Origin: an uncultured Balneolaceae bacterium
Lineage (GTDB): Bacteria; Bacteroidota; Rhodothermia; Balneolales; Balneolaceae
Direction: 5' to 3'
Assembly (NCBI GenBank): GCA_964449075.1
Contig: CAYVBJ010000013.1
Coordinates: 12,436 to 76,435, forward strand
Length of the DNA stretch: 64,000 bases
The notes beneath the pieces were generated by a model. The model searched no databases. It was not told where the DNA came from and saw only the letters and a program-made list of their open reading frames with translations. Of this stretch, positions 1,983 through 25,226 are shown in pieces (position 1 is the stretch's first letter; the number at the start of each line of letters is the position of its first letter). A program made the position numbers and the translations under genes.

Positions 1983-3761
1983 CTAATGAGTTACGGTTTG
2001 CTTGTCCTCTTGCGCCATTGTTTTCAAAACATGATCCTGCGAAATCCAGGGAATAGCATAGAGTCGTTGGGCATGATCTTCTCTCATTTTTTTCAGCAGT
2101 GGTTTTTCTGCAGCAGCCCGCTGCTTCAAAAGCGGATCGTTTACCGTAGCCGCCGACATACTCTGATTCGCGATCCATCCGAAAGGCTCAATACCCGATC
2201 GTTTTAAATCGTCCTGCAGTTTTGCAGCTTCCGAAACAGGCGTGGTTTCGGGAAGCGATACGATTAAAAGTTTTGAATAGTCAGGATCTTTGAGATACAT
2301 GTAAGGTGTTCTGAGTTTATCTGCATCCACAATCGTATTTCTGAGCACTTCTCTGTGATAACCGCCGGTCGTATCCAAAAGCAGCAGGGTATGGCCTGTT
2401 GGAGCTGTATCAATCACTACAAACTTCTGTCTGGCCTTGTGAATGGCTTTAGAAAAAGCCTGAAATACAGCTACCTCTTCGGTACAGGGCGATTCAAGAT
2501 CCTCGCGCAGAAGCTTCAGTTCCTCTTCGGATCTGTTTTTGCCCTTTTGTTTCAGAACTTTTTCGATGTAAGCCTCTTTCTCCACATCCGGATCAATGCG
2601 GTCAACTTCCAGATTTTCAGGTAGTTTCAGTTCATCGACTTGATCCATCAGGTGAGCCGCAGGATCGGTTGTTGTTAAATGAACCGGATACCCTTTATCT
2701 GCCAGTTTCAAAGCCAGGGCCACAGCAATGGTTGTTTTGCCCACACCGCCTTTTCCCATAGTCAGGATCAGTCCGTGATCTTTTCTGTCTGTAAGTTCGT
2801 TTATCAGTTGATCAAGCCCCGTAAGATTACTTTCATGCTCTTCCGTTAAGATGGATTGGCTGTTTTGCCTGATCTCTTTTTTGTCAAGTGGTTCAAACAC
2901 TTTACGCAGTTTTTCGATTCCCAGAAGATTGTAGGGACGAAGAGGGAAGACCACACGGCTCATCACTTTCAAACGATCCGGCATATTTTCTAATGTCTTA
3001 TCCGCCATCTCTTTCATTTTTTGTGCGAAAGGGTCCGATTCATCTACCGGTTCAAAATAGCCGTTGATCAGTAAAAACTGGTTGGAAAGCCCCATTTCTT
3101 CCAGTTCCCTGCCTGAACGGTCTGCCTCTCTCAGTGCGGATTCATCGGGACGGCTCACCAGGTAGATTGCAGTTGCATCTTCATCTTTCAGTCTTTCCAC
3201 CACTTTCTGATACCGTTTCTGGCTGGTTTTCAAGGCTGAAGAGGGGCCAATACACGATGCACCATCCGGATTGGATTTGATATAATCGCTCCAGGCTGCC
3301 GGTAATTCAAGCAACCGAAGTGTATGTCCGGTGGGAGCTGTATCAAATATAATTACATCATAAGGCTGGTCATCACCATCGCCTGCAACATAACGGGCAA
3401 ATTCATCAAAGGCTGCAATCTCTGTTGTACAGGCGCCTGACAGTTCCTCCCTGATTTTTTCGATTTCATGACCGGGCAGGATCTCTTCCAAAGGTGAGAT
3501 CACACGTTGACGATACTCTTCAGCCGACTGTTCGGGGTCAATATTTACAGCATGGAGATTTTCGACGCCTTTAACAGGGTTGATTTTTTCAGTGATATCG
3601 GTTTCAAGCACTTCCTTAAGGTTGGAAGCGGGATCCGTACTGATCAGCAGAACAGATTTACCTTCATCGGCCAGTTTAACAGCGGTGGCACTTGCAAGTG
3701 AAGTTTTACCAACACCCCCCTTACCTGTGAAAAAGATATATGGAGTGATTTCAGGTAACAT
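1983..3761 (-). CDS. arsA: Arsenite-stimulated ATPase ArsA
   Basis: 592 aa with two homologous halves. Each has a P-loop GKGGVGKT(S/T) and the ArsA signature DTAPTGHTLRLL / DTAPTGHTLLLL. Confidence 0.95.
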   Translation of the reverse strand: MLPEITPYIFFTGKGGVGKTSLASATAVKLADEGKSVLLISTDPASNLKEVLETDITEKINPVKGVENLHAVNIDPEQSAEEYRQRVISPLEEILPGHEIEKIREELSGACTTEIAAFDEFARYVAGDGDDQPYDVIIFDTAPTGHTLRLLELPAAWSDYIKSNPDGASCIGPSSALKTSQKRYQKVVERLKDEDATAIYLVSRPDESALREADRSGRELEEMGLSNQFLLINGYFEPVDESDPFAQKMKEMADKTLENMPDRLKVMSRVVFPLRPYNLLGIEKLRKVFEPLDKKEIRQNSQSILTEEHESNLTGLDQLINELTDRKDHGLILTMGKGGVGKTTIAVALALKLADKGYPVHLTTTDPAAHLMDQVDELKLPENLEVDRIDPDVEKEAYIEKVLKQKGKNRSEEELKLLREDLESPCTEEVAVFQAFSKAIHKARQKFVVIDTAPTGHTLLLLDTTGGYHREVLRNTIVDADKLRTPYMYLKDPDYSKLLIVSLPETTPVSEAAKLQDDLKRSGIEPFGWIANQSMSAATVNDPLLKQRAAAEKPLLKKMREDHAQRLYAIPWISQDHVLKTMAQEDKQTVTH

Positions 3762-3832
3762 GATTTTTAATTATGAATGGTAAATTTTTAATGATGAACT
3801 GTCCTTGGATATGCTGAAAAAATTGTAAGGTA

Positions 3833-4354: not shown

Positions 4355-5119
4355 TTAGCCTCCTTTCCTAAGCATATCCGCAAACGGATCTGGCAGGGGA
4401 CTCTCTTCAACAGCTTTCGCAGCTTTATCGATATCGTACTCAATGCGAATAAATTCAACACCAAGCGCGTCAGGATTCGAGAGATCAAGGTCGCCTTCCC
4501 AATCCAGCATTACATAACAGGCTCGCGGGTCACCGTCTTTTGGTTTTCCGACCGATCCGATATTTATGGCATGCCGAAAATTTCCATCATTATCTTTCAA
4601 TTTTTTGTGATACGGTTTATGCGTATGGCCAAAAGCCATGGTATGAGCATTTGAATTTTCCATCATACGTATCAGGCTTTTATCTTCACGGTCTTCGAAG
4701 AGGTACTCATTGATTTTTCGCGGGCTGCCATGTACGAGCAAAAGATGATACGGATCTGTATTGACTCCATATTCAACACGAATATGCGCCGGAAGAGAGC
4801 GGAGATAGGCACGGTTTTCATCCGAGATAATTTCATTGGTAAAAGCAATCGATTCAGCACCACGGGCTTTGTCTTCGTCTGTTTTATAGGCACATCCGCA
4901 GTCATCACTGTTCAGGCCAACACCCTGGTCGTAATTACCGGCAATAACCGGTATTCCCTTTTTTCGGATGGTTTCAATCACTTCATTGGGAAACGGTGCG
5001 TATCCTACAAGGTCTCCCAGGCAGTAGACCGCATCCGGAGATCGTGAGTAGATATCATCAAGTACTGGTGTAAGCGCGTCGATATTGGCATGTATGTCAC
5101 TAAATAAGGCAATTTTCAT
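4355..5119 (-). CDS. Calcineurin-like metallophosphoesterase (YfcE/MJ0936-like)
   Basis: 254 aa with ordered phosphoesterase motifs SDIHAN, GDLVGY, GNYD, VHGSP and GHTH. It is 6 bp downstream of arsR. Confidence 0.8.
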   Translation of the reverse strand: MKIALFSDIHANIDALTPVLDDIYSRSPDAVYCLGDLVGYAPFPNEVIETIRKKGIPVIAGNYDQGVGLNSDDCGCAYKTDEDKARGAESIAFTNEIISDENRAYLRSLPAHIRVEYGVNTDPYHLLLVHGSPRKINEYLFEDREDKSLIRMMENSNAHTMAFGHTHKPYHKKLKDNDGNFRHAINIGSVGKPKDGDPRACYVMLDWEGDLDLSNPDALGVEFIRIEYDIDKAAKAVEESPLPDPFADMLRKGG

Positions 5120-19893: not shown

Positions 19894-20988
19894 TTAACCA
19901 GGAATTTTTAAGATATCCGAAAGCACTCCGGCAGCGGTTACTTCTTTGCCCGCACCGGGACCCTGGATGATCAGGGGCTGGTCGTAGTAACGATTGGTTT
20001 TGATCTGAATCAGGTTGTTGGTTCCGGACAATTGTCCGATGGGCGACTCTTTGTCTGTCTCCCGGATTCCAATCCGGATGGAATCATTCGTAAATCTGCC
20101 GGCATAACGTAAGGTTTTACCGGTATTCTGAGATTTTTCAAGCCGCTCTTTCCAATAGTTATCCACTTGGTGCAGTTGCTGTAAAAACGTAGTTGAGTCG
20201 GCATTCTGCAGAAAATCGGGGATGAGAGATTCGACGTGAATCTGGTTTCGTTCCAGTTTCTGCCCGCAAGTCCTGGCCAGGATCAGAAATTTACGTGCCA
20301 CATCTTCGCCTGAAAGATCATCCCTCGGATCTGGTTCAGCATAACCGAGAGCTCTCGCCTGCACTACTGCTTCACTGAACGAGGCGCCTTTTCCAAGTTC
20401 ATCAAAAAGATAGGTCATAGTCCCTGAAAGCACACCACTAATTTCAACAATTTCATCTCCCGATTCAATCAAGTTACGGATAGGTTCAAGAACCGGCAGT
20501 CCCGCACCTACAGTTGTTTCATAATGATACTGAATACCGTTGGAATTCGCAGCTTCCAAAAGTGAGTCGAAGTAAAGCTGACTTTTGGTATTGGCAATTT
20601 TACTGGGAGTTACGATGTGAATTCCGGATTTGAGAATCGTCTCGTAAAGCCCGGCTACTTCCTGGCTTCCTGTTGCATCCACAAAAACGAGATTCTGATC
20701 AGAAAGCAGGTCAAGAGTATCCAGAACAGAGTCCCACTTTTTTGTTTTACCTCTGTAAAGCGTATCCGACAATTCAGAGACAGATTCGCCCCCGGATCTC
20801 CAGTTCACTTTTTCCCGGTTGCAAATGCCAATGATATTCAACGAAATATCACGATGTTCCAGGCTTTCAATCTGGTGCAACAGCGTACCGCCTATGGCCC
20901 CCACACCGGCCAGGAATATATTTAATCTCTTTTTGCTGATACCTTTTTGTTCAGCATGTTTTTTCAGTGCCAGAATTTGTTTTGTCAT
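19894..20988 (-). CDS. hom: Homoserine dehydrogenase
   Basis: 364 aa with an N-terminal NAD fold LAGVGAIGGTL and the signature region GYAEPDPRDDLSGEDVARKFLILAR. It is directly downstream of metX. Confidence 0.85.
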   Translation of the reverse strand: MTKQILALKKHAEQKGISKKRLNIFLAGVGAIGGTLLHQIESLEHRDISLNIIGICNREKVNWRSGGESVSELSDTLYRGKTKKWDSVLDTLDLLSDQNLVFVDATGSQEVAGLYETILKSGIHIVTPSKIANTKSQLYFDSLLEAANSNGIQYHYETTVGAGLPVLEPIRNLIESGDEIVEISGVLSGTMTYLFDELGKGASFSEAVVQARALGYAEPDPRDDLSGEDVARKFLILARTCGQKLERNQIHVESLIPDFLQNADSTTFLQQLHQVDNYWKERLEKSQNTGKTLRYAGRFTNDSIRIGIRETDKESPIGQLSGTNNLIQIKTNRYYDQPLIIQGPGAGKEVTAAGVLSDILKIPG

Positions 20989-20990
20989 AA

Positions 20991-22043
20991 CTATTGAATG
21001 GCTGCAGATTTATTGGTTTTGGTAAATTGACGGATAATTTTGTTCAGTTGTTCGAATTCAATCAGAAAAGCATCGTGGCCATGGTAGGATGATATCTCCC
21101 GGTATGTTCCGTTGGCGAGCAGTTTGGCGAGCTCTTTCTGTTCTTCAACAGGGTAGAGGAAGTCGGAGTCCACCCCAACTACAAGAACCGGAATCTTAAC
21201 ACGGTTAAGAATGAATTCATCGGAACCTCTGCCGCGCGCCGCGTTGTGCGTATCCATTGCCTTTGTAAGATTGATATACGAATGCGCGTCGAACCGTTTA
21301 ACAAGCTTTTCTCCCTGGTAATTCAGATAGGATTCAATTTGAAACAGATTCCCGGTTTCGTCTTGTAGTTTTCTGCTGAACTTGCGTTCAAAGTCGGCAG
21401 GGGACCTGTAGGTGATCATTGCCATCATCCGGGCTGCCGATAGTCCCCGGGCAGGCTGCTGTTCCAGTTCATAGTTTCCGCCATTCCAGGCCGGATCAGC
21501 TTTGATTGCACTGCGCTGCGCATGGCTGATGCCAATAGCCCACGGTGTGTGCTCTTTCCCCATGGCTATGCAAACGGCCGACCCGGGGCGGTGATCCATG
21601 ATCGCAAATTCCAATGCCTGCATACCGCCGAGGGAGCCGCCGATTACAAATTCAATACCGCGGATATCAAGCTGATCGAGAAGGAGCTGCTGAAACCGTA
21701 CCAAATCGCGGATAGTCAGTTCCGGAAAATCATTTCTGTAAGGCTTGCTTGTTTTTGGATTCTCGGTCCACGGTCCCACAGATCCGTAACAGCTGCCCGG
21801 CACGTTGATACAGATTACAAAATGAGTTTCCGGGTTAAAAATTCCATCGGGAGCAAAAAATCCCCAGAACCACTCATCAGCTGCAGCATGCCCCGTGAGC
21901 GCATGACAGATAAGAATCACATTATCACGCGACTCATTCAGCTCCCCCCAGGTTTTAAAAGCCGCGTCCGCCTGTTCAAAACGATGACCCGATTCGGTGA
22001 TAAAGGGTTCCGTAAGTTTTGTTTTTGTGATGCCTTCGTTCAT
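20991..22043 (-). CDS. metX: Homoserine O-acetyltransferase
   Basis: 350 aa alpha/beta hydrolase with the nucleophile elbow GGSLGGMQALEF and a C-terminal HGHDAFL, typical of MetX. Confidence 0.9.
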   Translation of the reverse strand: MNEGITKTKLTEPFITESGHRFEQADAAFKTWGELNESRDNVILICHALTGHAAADEWFWGFFAPDGIFNPETHFVICINVPGSCYGSVGPWTENPKTSKPYRNDFPELTIRDLVRFQQLLLDQLDIRGIEFVIGGSLGGMQALEFAIMDHRPGSAVCIAMGKEHTPWAIGISHAQRSAIKADPAWNGGNYELEQQPARGLSAARMMAMITYRSPADFERKFSRKLQDETGNLFQIESYLNYQGEKLVKRFDAHSYINLTKAMDTHNAARGRGSDEFILNRVKIPVLVVGVDSDFLYPVEEQKELAKLLANGTYREISSYHGHDAFLIEFEQLNKIIRQFTKTNKSAAIQ

Positions 22044-22072
22044 AGTTGTTTGGTTTAATTTCGTTTTAACAA

Positions 22073-22225
22073 TTCATCTGACGACTGAGGCCCAGGTATT
22101 GCTATGACCACGATCCAACAAGTCGTCTGATGAATCTCTGTGACAGCAATCCAGCCACCGCCATTCGCCGGACGACCTGAAAAATCCTGCCACTGGGTTC
22201 ATCCAGCCCTCAGTCGTCAGGCGAA
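22073..22225. repeat. 153-bp double-hairpin repeat, copy A
   Basis: By hand alignment it is 138/153 identical, without indels, to 22816-22968 in direct orientation. It contains four arms built on GACGAC/GTCGTC. Confidence 0.9.
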
Positions 22226-22231
22226 ACCTTT

Positions 22232-22768
22232 CTATTGCACAAACTGAACTTCACCTTCAACAGGTACCGGGTTTTTGATAATATCTAACACCGGGCACCG
22301 GGCGAATGACAGCTCCCGGAGTTTATCAAGTTTTTTTTGATCGGTTTCGTTTGTTTTAATTTTGGTGATATAGTTAATATCAGTAAAACCGGAACGAGCG
22401 TCAGTCAGGTTTAAAAATCCGTGTAGATCGATATTTCCATCAACCTCTACCGTCACTTCCGTAACATCTATTCCAAGTGCAATCGCATTGGCTTTTACAA
22501 CAATTTCCTGGCAGGCAGCAAGTGCTCCTAAAACATATTCAACAGGATTTGGTCCCGCATCTGTACCGCCAAGGCCTTCCGGTTCATCAGATTTAAAATT
22601 GAAATTCCGCACCTGCACATCAGTTAAAAAACTGTGTTCAAGTTTTGATTTTGCACTGAATGTTGCTTTGGCGCTGGCGGGATTTTCCCCGATCTTTTTA
22701 ACAACTTGCGTTATTACCTGACCGATTTCCCGGTCAGTCCGTTTTTTTTCTATGGTTGTAGTGCTCAT
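22232..22768 (-). CDS. OsmC/Ohr-family protein (peroxiredoxin-like)
   Basis: 178 aa with an OsmC-like core (GGTDAGPNPVEYVLGALAACQ ... FARCPV) carrying the two conserved Cys. Confidence 0.85.
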   Translation of the reverse strand: MSTTTIEKKRTDREIGQVITQVVKKIGENPASAKATFSAKSKLEHSFLTDVQVRNFNFKSDEPEGLGGTDAGPNPVEYVLGALAACQEIVVKANAIALGIDVTEVTVEVDGNIDLHGFLNLTDARSGFTDINYITKIKTNETDQKKLDKLRELSFARCPVLDIIKNPVPVEGEVQFVQ

Positions 22769-22815
22769 GGTTGAGTGATTGATATTATGGTTTTTGTTAT
22801 CTGAAAATTCTTCTA

Positions 22816-22968
22816 TTCATCTGACGACCGAGACAGTGGTACTGCTAAGACCGCGATCCAACAAGTCGTCTGATGAATATTCGTGGCAGCAATCCAGCCA
22901 CCGCTATTCGCCGGACGACCTGAAAAATCCTGCCACTGGGTTTATCCAGCCATCAGTCGTCAGGCGAA
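22816..22968. repeat. 153-bp double-hairpin repeat, copy B
   Basis: Direct repeat of 22073-22225. The 15 differences cluster mostly in the hairpin loops. Confidence 0.9.
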
Positions 22969-23117
22969 TTATATATATGCCTCCCGTACACATCTGAAGG
23001 TGTTTAAGCCAGTTCCTTCCCCTCTCGAGAGGGGACAGAATACTGCAAAAAGGCGTAGCCTGATTTGCAGTATACAGGGGTGTGTTCGGGACGTGTTAAA
23101 GATCATCAAACCTCCGA

Positions 23118-24449
<1,332 letters not shown>

Positions 24450-24493: not shown

Positions 24494-24973
24494 TCAGATT
24501 TTTCTTTTTGGACGTATCAGGAATTGATGATCTACTTTCATACACCTGCTTTGAATCAGTTTTTTCCCGGCTTTTTCGGCTCTTTCTTTCTGCTCCGGAT
24601 GTACTCCGGTGCCAAGTTGCAGCCAGATAGCTTTCGGATCAATTTCGAGAGCCTGGTTTACCACTTCGGGTATGTAATCGGGACGGATGAATACGTCCAC
24701 AACATCAACTTGTAAGGGAATGGATTTTAAATCCGGGTACGCTTTTTCACCGAGTATTTCATCCGCGCCCGGATTCACGGGGATAATTTTATAACCGGCA
24801 TTCTGCAGATAGCGGCCAACATAGTAACTGTCTTTATGCTGGTTGCGCGAAATACCGACAATGGCGATTGTCTCTGTTTCATCCAGCAGATGTTCGATTT
24901 CATCCGTTTCTTCTGAGAGCTCCGTTGTTGCCCTCATCTTTTTGTCGTACCAGTCGTTAAATGTTGATCTCAA
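24494..24973 (-). CDS. CoA-binding domain protein (YccU/YneT-like)
   Basis: 159 aa with a Rossmann-like IAIVGISRNQHKDSYYVGRYLQNAGYKIIPVNP. It is the first ORF after the SAM-I riboswitch. Confidence 0.8.
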   Translation of the reverse strand: MRSTFNDWYDKKMRATTELSEETDEIEHLLDETETIAIVGISRNQHKDSYYVGRYLQNAGYKIIPVNPGADEILGEKAYPDLKSIPLQVDVVDVFIRPDYIPEVVNQALEIDPKAIWLQLGTGVHPEQKERAEKAGKKLIQSRCMKVDHQFLIRPKRKI

Positions 24974-25005: not shown

Positions 25006-25070
25006 CAAAAAAAAACCTCTTCTGAATTTCTGTCCCGTAAGTGCCGGGAAAAGATTTCAGAAGAGGTTTT
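25006..25070 (-). terminator. Expression-platform terminator of the SAM-I riboswitch
   Basis: Minus strand: a long hairpin with arms AAACCUCUUCUGAAAU and AUUCAGAAGAGGUUU, followed by a U8-9 run. The 5' arm AACCUCU can alternatively pair with AGAGGUU from the 3' strand of aptamer helix P1, forming an antiterminator. Confidence 0.8.
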
Positions 25071-25092
25071 TGGATTTCAAAAATTACTCAAC

Positions 25093-25226
25093 CTCTCATC
25101 TTTCCCCAAAACGTGCCGGGGCAGGAAGTAGCACCTGACTCCCCGACAAATTTTTCAAAGAAAATTAGTCGGGGACGGTTGCCAAGGCTTCACAGGGCCT
25201 GATCCCTCCGCCTTTCTCTATAAGAG
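25093..25226 (-). promoter_or_regulatory. SAM-I (S-box) riboswitch aptamer
   Basis: The minus strand reads CUCUUAUAGAGAAAGGCGGAGGGAUCAGGCCCUGUGAAGCCUUGGCAACC...GGUGCUACUUCCUGCCCC...GGGGAAAGAUGAGAG. This matches the S-box consensus (P1 CUCUUAU/AGAUGAGAG, GGCGGAGGGA-xx-GGCCC, GCAACC, GGUGCUA). It is upstream of met genes. Confidence 0.9.

Follow-up and report, generated by a model that had tools for sequence, protein, structure and literature searches.

Repetitive extragenic palindromic (REP) sequences and the tyrosine transposases that are associated with them (RAYTs) have been studied mostly in Proteobacteria. The locus described here was compared with the REP sequences and bacterial interspersed mosaic elements (BIMEs) of Enterobacteria and with the REP doublets forming hairpins (REPINs) of Pseudomonas (Bertels and Rainey 2011, PMC3116915; Ton-Hoang et al. 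2012). Among the TnpA-Y1 transposases, subclass 2.4 has in-frame REP insertion as a unique feature and is found in large numbers among Cyanobacteria and Bacteroidetes, and the Bacteroidetes subclass 2.6 has atypical REP structures that lack GTAG (Quentin et al. 2018, PMC6006769). CGTC-tagged REPs carry an unpaired CGTC tag, an 8-9 bp stem, a 4-5 nt loop plus a CCA tail, and no transposase is associated with them (Di Nocera et al. 2013, PMC3733652). Here, a stretch of 64,000 nucleotides from an uncultured Balneolaceae bacterium (contig CAYVBJ010000013.1, positions 12,436 to 76,435 of the forward strand; the whole stretch is termed the window) was analyzed with respect to two direct repeats, termed E1 copies A and B, that lie on either side of an osmC-like gene in a methionine operon. 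Each 153-bp unit is probably a small cluster of REP-type palindromes, that is, a BIME/REPIN-like element, because it combines two arm subtypes, alternating orientation, an extragenic position, patchy presence, copies elsewhere in the same genome and a link to RAYTs at the level of the hairpin family.

The E1 repeats and the methionine operon

The two repeats had first been recognized by eye at 22073-22225 and 22816-22968, and an exact count confirmed that they are identical at 138 of 153 positions without gaps. A repeat search of the window returned the same pair as a single two-copy direct family of 154 nt (22072-22225 and 22815-22968, 90% identity, spacing 743), and no other long repeat is present in the 64 kb. 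Both copies are intergenic. Copy A lies 6 nt 3' of the osmC stop codon and 29 nt 5' of the metX start codon, and the end of copy B is separated from the osmC start codon by 47 nt; the two distances to osmC given in the original prediction were correct.

Each E1 unit contains four 13-nt arms with the motif TTCRYCNGACGAC in alternating orientation. On the gene strand, arm 1 (TTCGCCTGACGAC) is followed after 36 nt by arm 2 (GTCGTCCGGCGAA), after a further 29 nt by arm 3 (TTCATCAGACGAC) and, after another 36 nt, by arm 4 (GTCGTCAGATGAA). The arms make up two modules, H1 (arms ATTCGCCNGACGAC) and H2 (arms ATTCATCNGACGAC), each with a stem of ~14 bp that has a central mismatch and a loop of 36 nt; counted with the flanking ATTC/GAAT bases a module is a hairpin of ~64 nt, and the modules are joined by a 27-nt linker. 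Two arm subtypes, TTCGCC and TTCATC, are present, and the E1-type hairpin arms can be written in pattern form as ATTCRYCNGAYGAC. The motif TTCRYCNGACGAC has eight matches in the window, where 0.65 were expected, and all are inside the E1 copies; they correspond to the four GACGAC/GTCGTC-type arms per copy that had been proposed. Weaker copies of the arm, with three mismatches, gave 38 matches across the window against an expectation of 29 +/- 6, the good ones all being inside E1.

The 15 differences between copies A and B fall at element positions 17, 26, 64, 83, 87, 88, 90, 116, 121, 127, 132-134, 136 and 140. None of the 15 is in an arm, where the arms occupy 52 of the 153 positions (P ~0.002 under a uniform model), and the earlier impression of conserved stems is borne out. 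The 5' flanks of the copies read AAAGGT and TATATAA, with no GTAG or GTGG, and no target-site duplication was visible in the flanks of either copy, though the termini are inverted. A 'MITE/REP-like element' (MITE, miniature inverted-repeat transposable element) had been the first alternative listed in the original prediction, and the evidence favors it.

The minus strand reads SAM-I, CoA_binding_2, metY, E2 (a second palindromic element, described below), E1 copy B, osmC, E1 copy A, metX and hom (Table 1). Pfam and Rfam matches agree with the genes as originally assigned and with control of the operon by an S-adenosylmethionine (SAM) riboswitch. It had also been proposed that osmC was inserted in this operon. 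An identical OsmC protein was found on ~20 contigs from metagenomes or metagenome-assembled genomes (MAGs), all with the same layout; the names given to its homologues assign the organism to the Balneolaceae. In relatives with OsmC identities of 94, 86, 85, 81, 75 and 74% osmC directly follows the CoA-binding gene and metY in all cases. In every relative whose contig continues, metX and hom come next; the contigs of the 86% relative (L016 and L017; loci are labeled L with a number) stop ~40 nt past osmC. In Rhodohalobacter sp. SW132 (L023; OsmC 59%) the order is metY, two extra redox genes, osmC, metX and hom. The order CoA-binding gene, metY, osmC, metX, hom is kept across the Balneolaceae, with or without repeats, to an OsmC identity of 59%. 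Since osmC is kept in place in the relatives, repeat-free loci included, it is, as judged from gene order, an ancestral and long-standing member of the Balneolaceae metY-metX-hom operon, and the premise of a captured cassette fails.

The synteny bears directly on the proposal that E1 represents integron-type attC sites, a pair resembling a cluster of attC sites lacking an integron integrase (CALIN), that bound a mobile osmC cassette and are served by an integrase encoded elsewhere. Two imperfect palindromes do surround one open reading frame (ORF), and their terminal boxes are one complementary change away from RYYYAAC/GTTRRRY. However, osmC occupies the same position in all relatives, repeat-free ones included, which already contradicts the proposal, and there is next to no likelihood left for it. 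The boxes read GCCTGAC ... GTCAGAT and have GAC/GTC, or GAT/ATC in L018 and L022, with no GTT/AAC core. The predicted stems have paired arms of equal length with mismatches only and no bulged extrahelical bases, each unit has four arms and not two box pairs, and the same hairpins stand alone behind unrelated genes or form ORF-free tandem arrays (see below). The absence of an integrase from the window, as noted at the outset, held for the genes and ORFs that were checked: genes called between ~12 and 32 kb have housekeeping Pfam families only, and a scan of 20 further ORFs (260-460 aa), which did not take in every ORF of the window, returned housekeeping families with one ORF lacking a match. 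E1 is not tied to mobility of osmC, and the false lead of an integron-like cassette in the methionine operon is removed.

The place of OsmC as a long-standing member of the metY-metX-hom operon is itself a small functional clue. At L023:1316-2988, the interval that separates metY from osmC holds one gene for a luciferase-like monooxygenase and one for an FMN-reductase/flavodoxin-like protein. These redox genes, together with the family-wide linkage of osmC and metX, hint that the OsmC-like protein may serve methionine synthesis in a redox or sulfur-related capacity.

Table 1. Coordinates of the operon features, of the E1 and E2 elements and of E2 homologues at other loci; positions without a locus label are those of the window.
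Feature	Position	Strand	Basis or remark
SAM-I riboswitch aptamer, operon head	25093..25226	(-)	Rfam RF00162, 73.7 bits, above gathering score
CoA_binding_2 gene, first of operon	24494..24973	(-)	PF13380
metY-like O-acetylhomoserine sulfhydrylase, Cys_Met_Meta_PP (pyridoxal phosphate, PLP) enzyme	23118..24440	(-)	PF01053, E 1.8e-131
E2 composite palindrome, between metY and E1 copy B	22982..23091	(-)	fold z -4.6
E1 copy B, 5' of osmC	22815..22969	(-)	layout H1-linker-H2 as in copy A
Copy B, H1 module	22969-22906
Copy B, linker	22905-22879
Copy B, H2 module	22878-22815
Copy B, arm 1	22956..22968	(-)	motif scan
Copy B, arms 2, 3 and 4	22907-22919, 22865-22877, 22816-22828		partners of arm 1
OsmC-family gene, 178 aa	22232..22768	(-)	PF02566, E 1.7e-21; conserved synteny
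E1 copy A, 3' of osmC	22072..22226	(-)	direct repeat family, alignment, folds
Copy A, H1 module	22226-22163		gene strand
Copy A, linker (27 nt)	22162-22136		gene strand
Copy A, H2 module	22135-22072		gene strand
Copy A, arm 1 (TTCGCCTGACGAC)	22213..22225	(-)	motif scan
Copy A, arms 2, 3 and 4	22164-22176, 22122-22134, 22073-22085		partners of arm 1
metX-like homoserine O-acetyltransferase (alpha/beta hydrolase)	20991..22043	(-)	PF00561; metX role inferred from operon context
Homoserine dehydrogenase (hom)	19894..20988	(-)	PF00742 and PF03447
E2 homologue	L014:2438-2492
E2 homologue	L020:2818-2948
E2 homologues	L021:2772-2920 and 3642-3788
E2 homologue	L022:2518-2648

The comparison of metY-metX loci that the original prediction had called for showed that osmC is always present in the relatives and that the element is single, deleted, reduced to a remnant or absent. 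In the 94% relative (L014), the copy upstream of osmC is full-length, with arm 2 degraded (GTCGCCCGGCGA) and the linker shorter, and the downstream copy is without the 50 nt between two GGCTGGAT direct repeats, arm 2 being gone. The 86% relative (L016) has no element upstream, where the spacer is 49 nt; downstream, the contig runs into a copy and stops within it. A single hairpin of 65 nt stands on either side of osmC in the 85% relative (L018), with the stem ATTCATCGGATGAC/GTCATCCGATGAAT downstream and an imperfect 3' arm (ATCATCCGGTGAAT) upstream. The 81, 75 and 74% relatives (L020, L021 and L022) have none upstream and carry downstream, respectively, a possible remnant only, a degenerate hairpin and a single hairpin. 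A hairpin is accordingly found in the osmC-metX spacer of the window and of five of the six readable relatives (L023 not included), L020 having only the remnant. The stems show compensatory change, GACGAC/GTCGTC in one case being GATGAC/GTCATC in relatives, and within the window the paired variants TTCGCC/GGCGAA and TTCATC/GATGAA are both present. Loop identity is 66-77% in the clade of the window and L014 and 55-68% elsewhere, and shuffled loops gave 51 +/- 5%.

On this distribution, the single module at the osmC-metX spacer looks old, and the double module and the upstream copy look later and patchy. A hairpin would have been present in the osmC-metX spacer since before the divergence of these Balneolaceae species, the element would have become a double module in the lineage of the window, and the second copy could have reached the metY-osmC spacer by transposition, gene conversion or recombination. 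Both assemblies of the 86% relative stop a few dozen bases into the downstream E1 copy (L016:3543-3578 and L017:2360-2385), as is usual where an assembly is interrupted by a repeat, and these breaks inside E1 suggest that further copies exist in the genome of that relative.

The dispersed hairpin family and RAYT-like transposases

A metagenome collection was searched with the pattern ATTCNNCNGAYGAC-N20-50-GTCRTCNGNNGAAT, in which each arm is specified only in part. The pattern matched at least 119 metagenome contigs, where a handful were estimated to do so by chance, and none of those listed could be recognized as coming from the home genome. All further counts refer to the matches listed. Positions that the pattern does not constrain proved complementary in the distinct hairpins, with the NN positions pairing in 122 of 136 (1/16 expected) and the Y/R positions in 132 of 136 (1/2 expected). 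At the center, the two arms either form a G:C pair or carry an identical base (T.T or A.A), the latter being a central mismatch as in the window. The arms of the dominant family, ATTCATCNGATGACT / AGTCATCNGATGAAT, are identical to those of L018 and L022. Hairpin lengths cluster at 48-50 and 64-66 nt, and a minimal form of 33 nt occurs in L088 and L091. The hairpins are mostly intergenic (127 of 155) and are found in all gene orientations, most rarely between divergent genes. Several contigs of one sample often share a single loop type and carry near-identical hairpins, as expected for a population of repeats within a genome. None of the matched loci listed contains the met operon; mdh and argH are among the genes after which hairpins stand. 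The hairpin in L064, of 66 nt with GACGAC arms, lies 17 nt 3' of argH, and the best named homologues of that ArgH are from Balneolaceae and Rhodohalobacter; a 14.7-kb contig of the same genome has one copy only.

The window was extended by 8.2 kb to the left through the contig L145, which is 100% identical over 11,955 nt, and by 7.8 kb to the right. A third site in the home genome was found at L145:13734-13799, ~1.8 kb past the left end of the window. This E1-type hairpin has a perfect 14-bp stem, cTTCATCGGATGACT-N36-AGTCATCCGATGAAt, with a fold z of -7.0, and it begins 6 nt after the stop codon of an aldehyde dehydrogenase gene and ends 23 nt before a DUF779 gene. No hairpin was found in the 7.8-kb right extension. 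The home genome has at least three sites in ~80 kb, all of them in spacers of co-directional genes. A unit that occurred nowhere else had been given as the outcome that would speak for a simple local event; related hairpins are in fact present elsewhere in the same genome and in other genomes. A strict three-arm pattern, searched in one genome per species, matched the tandem hairpins of Neolewinella marina and two further sites that are apparently chance matches, in a collection in which the source locus was not found. The N. marina isolate genome carries these tandem hairpins with TTCGTCCGACGAC arms. The arm sequence gave unrelated matches only in the searchable literature.

The third site bears on the idea that part of the osmC-metX spacer was duplicated a single time into the metY-osmC spacer, as a purely local duplication with no mobile family behind it. 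The copies are 90% identical and are the sole members within the window, as such an event would leave them. Related hairpins are, however, present at another locus of the same genome (the third site) and in other genomes, and L018 also has hairpins on both sides of osmC, there of the single-module type, so this origin is very unlikely. A tandem segmental duplication was rejected because only one osmC is present.

Several loci hold the hairpins as arrays. Tandem arrays with a period of 101-104 nt were seen at L105:6080-7140, L069:6489-7082, L070:9439-10001 and L031:10322-10579; their arms and spacers are conserved and their loops vary, and the L105 array has at least 10 units. A dense array of the 33-nt minimal hairpins lies at L088:4420-5150. 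The tandem arrays were considered as clustered regularly interspaced short palindromic repeats (CRISPR) and rejected as such, there being no pattern of constant repeats with unique spacers. A contig of an Acidimicrobiaceae MAG begins with a near-perfect palindrome of ~125 nt, with two arms of ~53 nt and a short loop (L012:1-143); it represents an artefact of fold-back in the assembly or else the end of a hairpin, and in either case a chance match to the pattern that is unrelated to E1.

All ORFs of the matched loci listed (119 loci, 703 kb) were clustered, and one recurrent family was found at the hairpins. Its members, 180-215 aa long, have an HUH motif (LMPNHFHLM) and, at the C terminus, the motif YIHxNP, and they were found in L024, L043 and L074 (one locus type), L062, L091 and L101, which makes four independent loci. 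Every RAYT-like gene among the matches listed lies no more than ~150 nt from a hairpin. Among curated families they match NCBIfam NF047646, 'REP-associated tyrosine transposase', best (E 4.4e-15 and 2.4e-11, scores that do not reach the equivalog cut-off), and one RAYT-like protein scored 25.9 bits with Pfam Y1_Tnp, for which the cut-off is 23. The L101 protein has 4,867 homologues at E <= 1e-8, which bear the names of transposases or RayT of Ignavibacteria, Chitinophagales, Cyclobacteriaceae, Reichenbachiella and Fulvivirga. Its gene has exact arms on the 5' side and diverged arms, with two mismatches each, on the 3' side; beside it the arms are nested in a forward-forward-reverse-reverse arrangement, and a ~90% identical copy of the 66-nt L101 hairpin is present on another contig of the same sample (L047). 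In-frame REP insertions were detected within RAYT-like genes at L062:1999-2031, L091:5209-5241 and L043 ~4500-4560 (protein THGVTLSHPVS), and they encode THPMTPSHRMS-like peptides.

Through their arms and geometry, the E1 modules fall in with these hairpins, in what appears to be a family widespread in the Bacteroidota/Ignavibacteria group with consensus arms ATTCATCNGATGACT / AGTCATCNGATGAAT. The REP-associated tyrosine (Y1 HUH) transposases, which adjoin the family in several genomes, would be the likely agents of its spread, and it may be that a RAYT moves, or has moved, the E1 copies in the home genome. A rather different account would treat the arm as a near-palindrome in its own right (TCATC-N-GATGA), and the arms as duplex DNA operator sites for a dimeric regulator or nucleoid protein. 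The palindromic core of the arm fits such sites, as does the central base, which among the matches listed is equal in both arms in a good number of hairpins (T/T in 26 and A/A in 22 of 136) and is mismatched in the hairpin. It is nevertheless a highly improbable account, because the flanks (AT...CT and AG...AT) and the free positions are inverted-symmetric (122-132 of 136 among the matches listed), the stems reach beyond the palindromic core, and the association is with Y1 HUH enzymes, which act on single-stranded hairpins.

A number of points weigh against the interpretation of E1 as a BIME/REPIN-like element. The window and its 16 kb of extensions yielded no RAYT gene, and none was shown for any Balneolaceae genome in the sequence searched, which comprised the window, the extensions and the matched loci. 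The 5' GT[AG]G guide tetranucleotide of classical REPs is missing at E1, and the density of copies in the home genome is low. The loops of E1 and of other loci are 65-68% identical, which is only marginally above the 51 +/- 5% of shuffled loops, and family membership therefore rests mainly on arms and geometry. The persistence of the osmC-metX hairpin could, moreover, reflect selection for a local function.

The hairpin family with ATTCATCNGATGACT arms is common to the Balneolaceae and many Bacteroidota/Ignavibacteria-like contigs, and it is tied to RAYT-like Y1 transposases. Arms that are conserved over so wide a group could aid the study of hairpin recognition by RAYTs, and a description of the family could spare annotators from miscalling such repeats.

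At some of these loci a RAYT-like Y1 HUH gene lies directly upstream of cas1-cas2 (L062:316-6970 and L024:6705-8767, the latter being of the same locus type as L043 and L074). L062 and L024 are divergent, with Cas1 57% and RAYT 61% identical, and in L062 the RAYT-like gene is placed between cas9 (1559 aa) and cas1. To our knowledge, no role has been described for a RAYT inside a type II CRISPR-Cas operon.

Predicted RNA properties of E1 and the E2 element

The gene-strand RNA of E1 is predicted to fold with ~-70 kcal/mol and with z-scores of -4.6 to -5.3 against shuffled sequences. The opposite strand folds with a similar z, the range for both strands together being -4.5 to -5.3. The predicted fold consists either of two adjacent hairpins or of a nested structure that pairs arms 1 and 4 and, within them, arms 2 and 3, and the long-range pairing of the outermost arms that had been suggested earlier appears in the nested form. 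In the whole window the SAM riboswitch alone passed the Rfam gathering score, and an Rfam scan of 21900-23300 by E-value gave chance-level matches only. A scan of the E1 gene strand with promoter and terminator consensus sequences, which does not model Bacteroidota-type promoters, found none. The E1 copies are not canonical terminators because no U-tract follows them on the 3' side.

Both copies lie within the polycistronic transcript controlled by the SAM riboswitch and must therefore form very stable RNA hairpins; the placing of hairpins of ~-70 kcal/mol in a polycistronic mRNA would be a by-product of the spread of the element. The REP and BIME sequences of E. coli are established as 3'-exonuclease barriers or processing sites (cited in PMC6006769), and by analogy the E1 hairpins probably act in the same way in this transcript. 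Hairpins that lie within ~15 nt of a stop codon, such as those after osmC and the aldehyde dehydrogenase gene (both 6 nt), could possibly interfere with translation termination. As copy A begins 6 nt past the stop codon of osmC, it may in addition impede termination or the release of ribosomes at that point. It is in this sense, and by such analogies, that we infer any effect of E1 on the mRNA.

These properties might be taken to mean that the hairpins are an operon-specific cis-acting RNA, acting as an intercistronic stabilizer, a processing site or an attenuator that sets the expression of metY, osmC and metX, and that the likeness to dispersed repeats is secondary, the repeats having been co-opted. 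The hairpin is indeed present in the osmC-metX spacer of the window, L014, L016, L018, L021 and L022, its stems change in a compensatory manner, its predicted stability is very high, and all three home-genome sites lie between co-directional genes, two of them beginning 6 nt after a stop codon. However, L020 has a remnant or nothing, no hairpin is found upstream of osmC in L016, L020, L021 or L022, and the forms vary freely between single, double and deleted. The same hairpin also follows unrelated genes (aldehyde dehydrogenase, argH and mdh), and there is neither an Rfam match nor a terminator-like tail. An operon-specific RNA of this kind is, on balance, unlikely.

A more general form of co-option, in which hairpins near stop codons inside operons (osmC, aldehyde dehydrogenase, argH) have come to serve as translation-coupled or decay-blocking punctuation, has a low chance of being correct. 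If it were true, the output of OsmC would be uncoupled from the methionine genes controlled by the SAM riboswitch, and the Balneolaceae would have a REP-based regulation inside operons like that proposed for E. coli REPs less than 15 nt from stop codons.

The E2 element is unrelated to E1. It has a closing stem of the ACACACC.../...GGTGTGT type around inner hairpins that include CCCCTCTCGAGAGGGG. Across loci the conserved closing stem reads (GT)ACACACC(CCTG) ... (CAGG)GGTGTGT(AC) and encloses 0-4 inner hairpins, one of which is CTGTCCCCTCTCGAGAGGGGACAG, and the set of inner hairpins varies between species. Homologues are listed in Table 1; E2 stands on both sides of osmC in L021, and a more divergent element of the same design is present twice in L023 (L023:930-1062). 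The folds have z-scores from -4.6 to -11.8 across loci, E2 has no Rfam match, and among the fetched loci it is restricted to the met operon. It resembles a set of nested palindromic insertions, although a structured RNA is another possibility.

At the head of the operon, an inverted repeat with 27-nt arms lies in the minus-strand leader at 25011-25071, just downstream of the SAM aptamer, and probably represents the riboswitch's expression platform (terminator). Compared with the Rfam consensus, the aptamer carries an insertion of 32 nt in P3.

Comparison with known systems

Like the MITEs of the Correia, ERIC and RUP types, E1 is small and non-coding, has terminal inverted repeats, is inserted in operon spacers and may affect the mRNA. 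Unlike them, it has no target-site duplication, and the enzyme associated with its family is of the Y1 HUH type and not a DDE transposase. With attC sites and CALINs it shares imperfect palindromes beside an ORF, stems with mismatches and a form that is thought to fold single-stranded; it differs from them in the lack of a GTT/AAC core, of bulged extrahelical bases and of an integrase among the ORFs checked, and in that the flanked gene is not mobile.

The CGTC-tagged REPs (PMC3733652) come closer, in that CGTC is present, Bacteroidetes/Chlorobi are among their phyla, and they occur mostly as head-to-head dimers and sometimes inside genes, features that were counted as shared with the hairpin family. 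In the hairpin family, however, CGTC is inside a stem of 13-18 bp, loops are of 3-36 nt, many members have CATC, and RAYT-like genes are adjacent. E1 was rejected as a member of the CGTC-tagged REPs on geometry.

The in-frame REP insertions in RAYT-like genes resemble those of the TnpA-Y1 subclass 2.4 'REPtrons', and the REP structures without GTAG resemble those of subclass 2.6 (PMC6006769). This likeness is one of features, and the parts of the text and supplements of PMC6006769 that were accessible do not contain the arm sequence.

The comparison with REP, BIME and REPIN elements shows differences in the absence of GT[AG]G at the foot of the hairpin, the much longer loops (20-36 nt), the low density here and the lack of a RAYT in the Balneolaceae sequence searched. 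The features held in common are short, imperfect, extragenic palindromes that are frequent immediately 3' of genes and in the spacers of operons, alternating units that form larger hairpins, more than one arm subtype, occurrence in clusters and tandem arrays, a patchy distribution among relatives and, here in the metagenome relatives, RAYT genes that are flanked by the same repeats.

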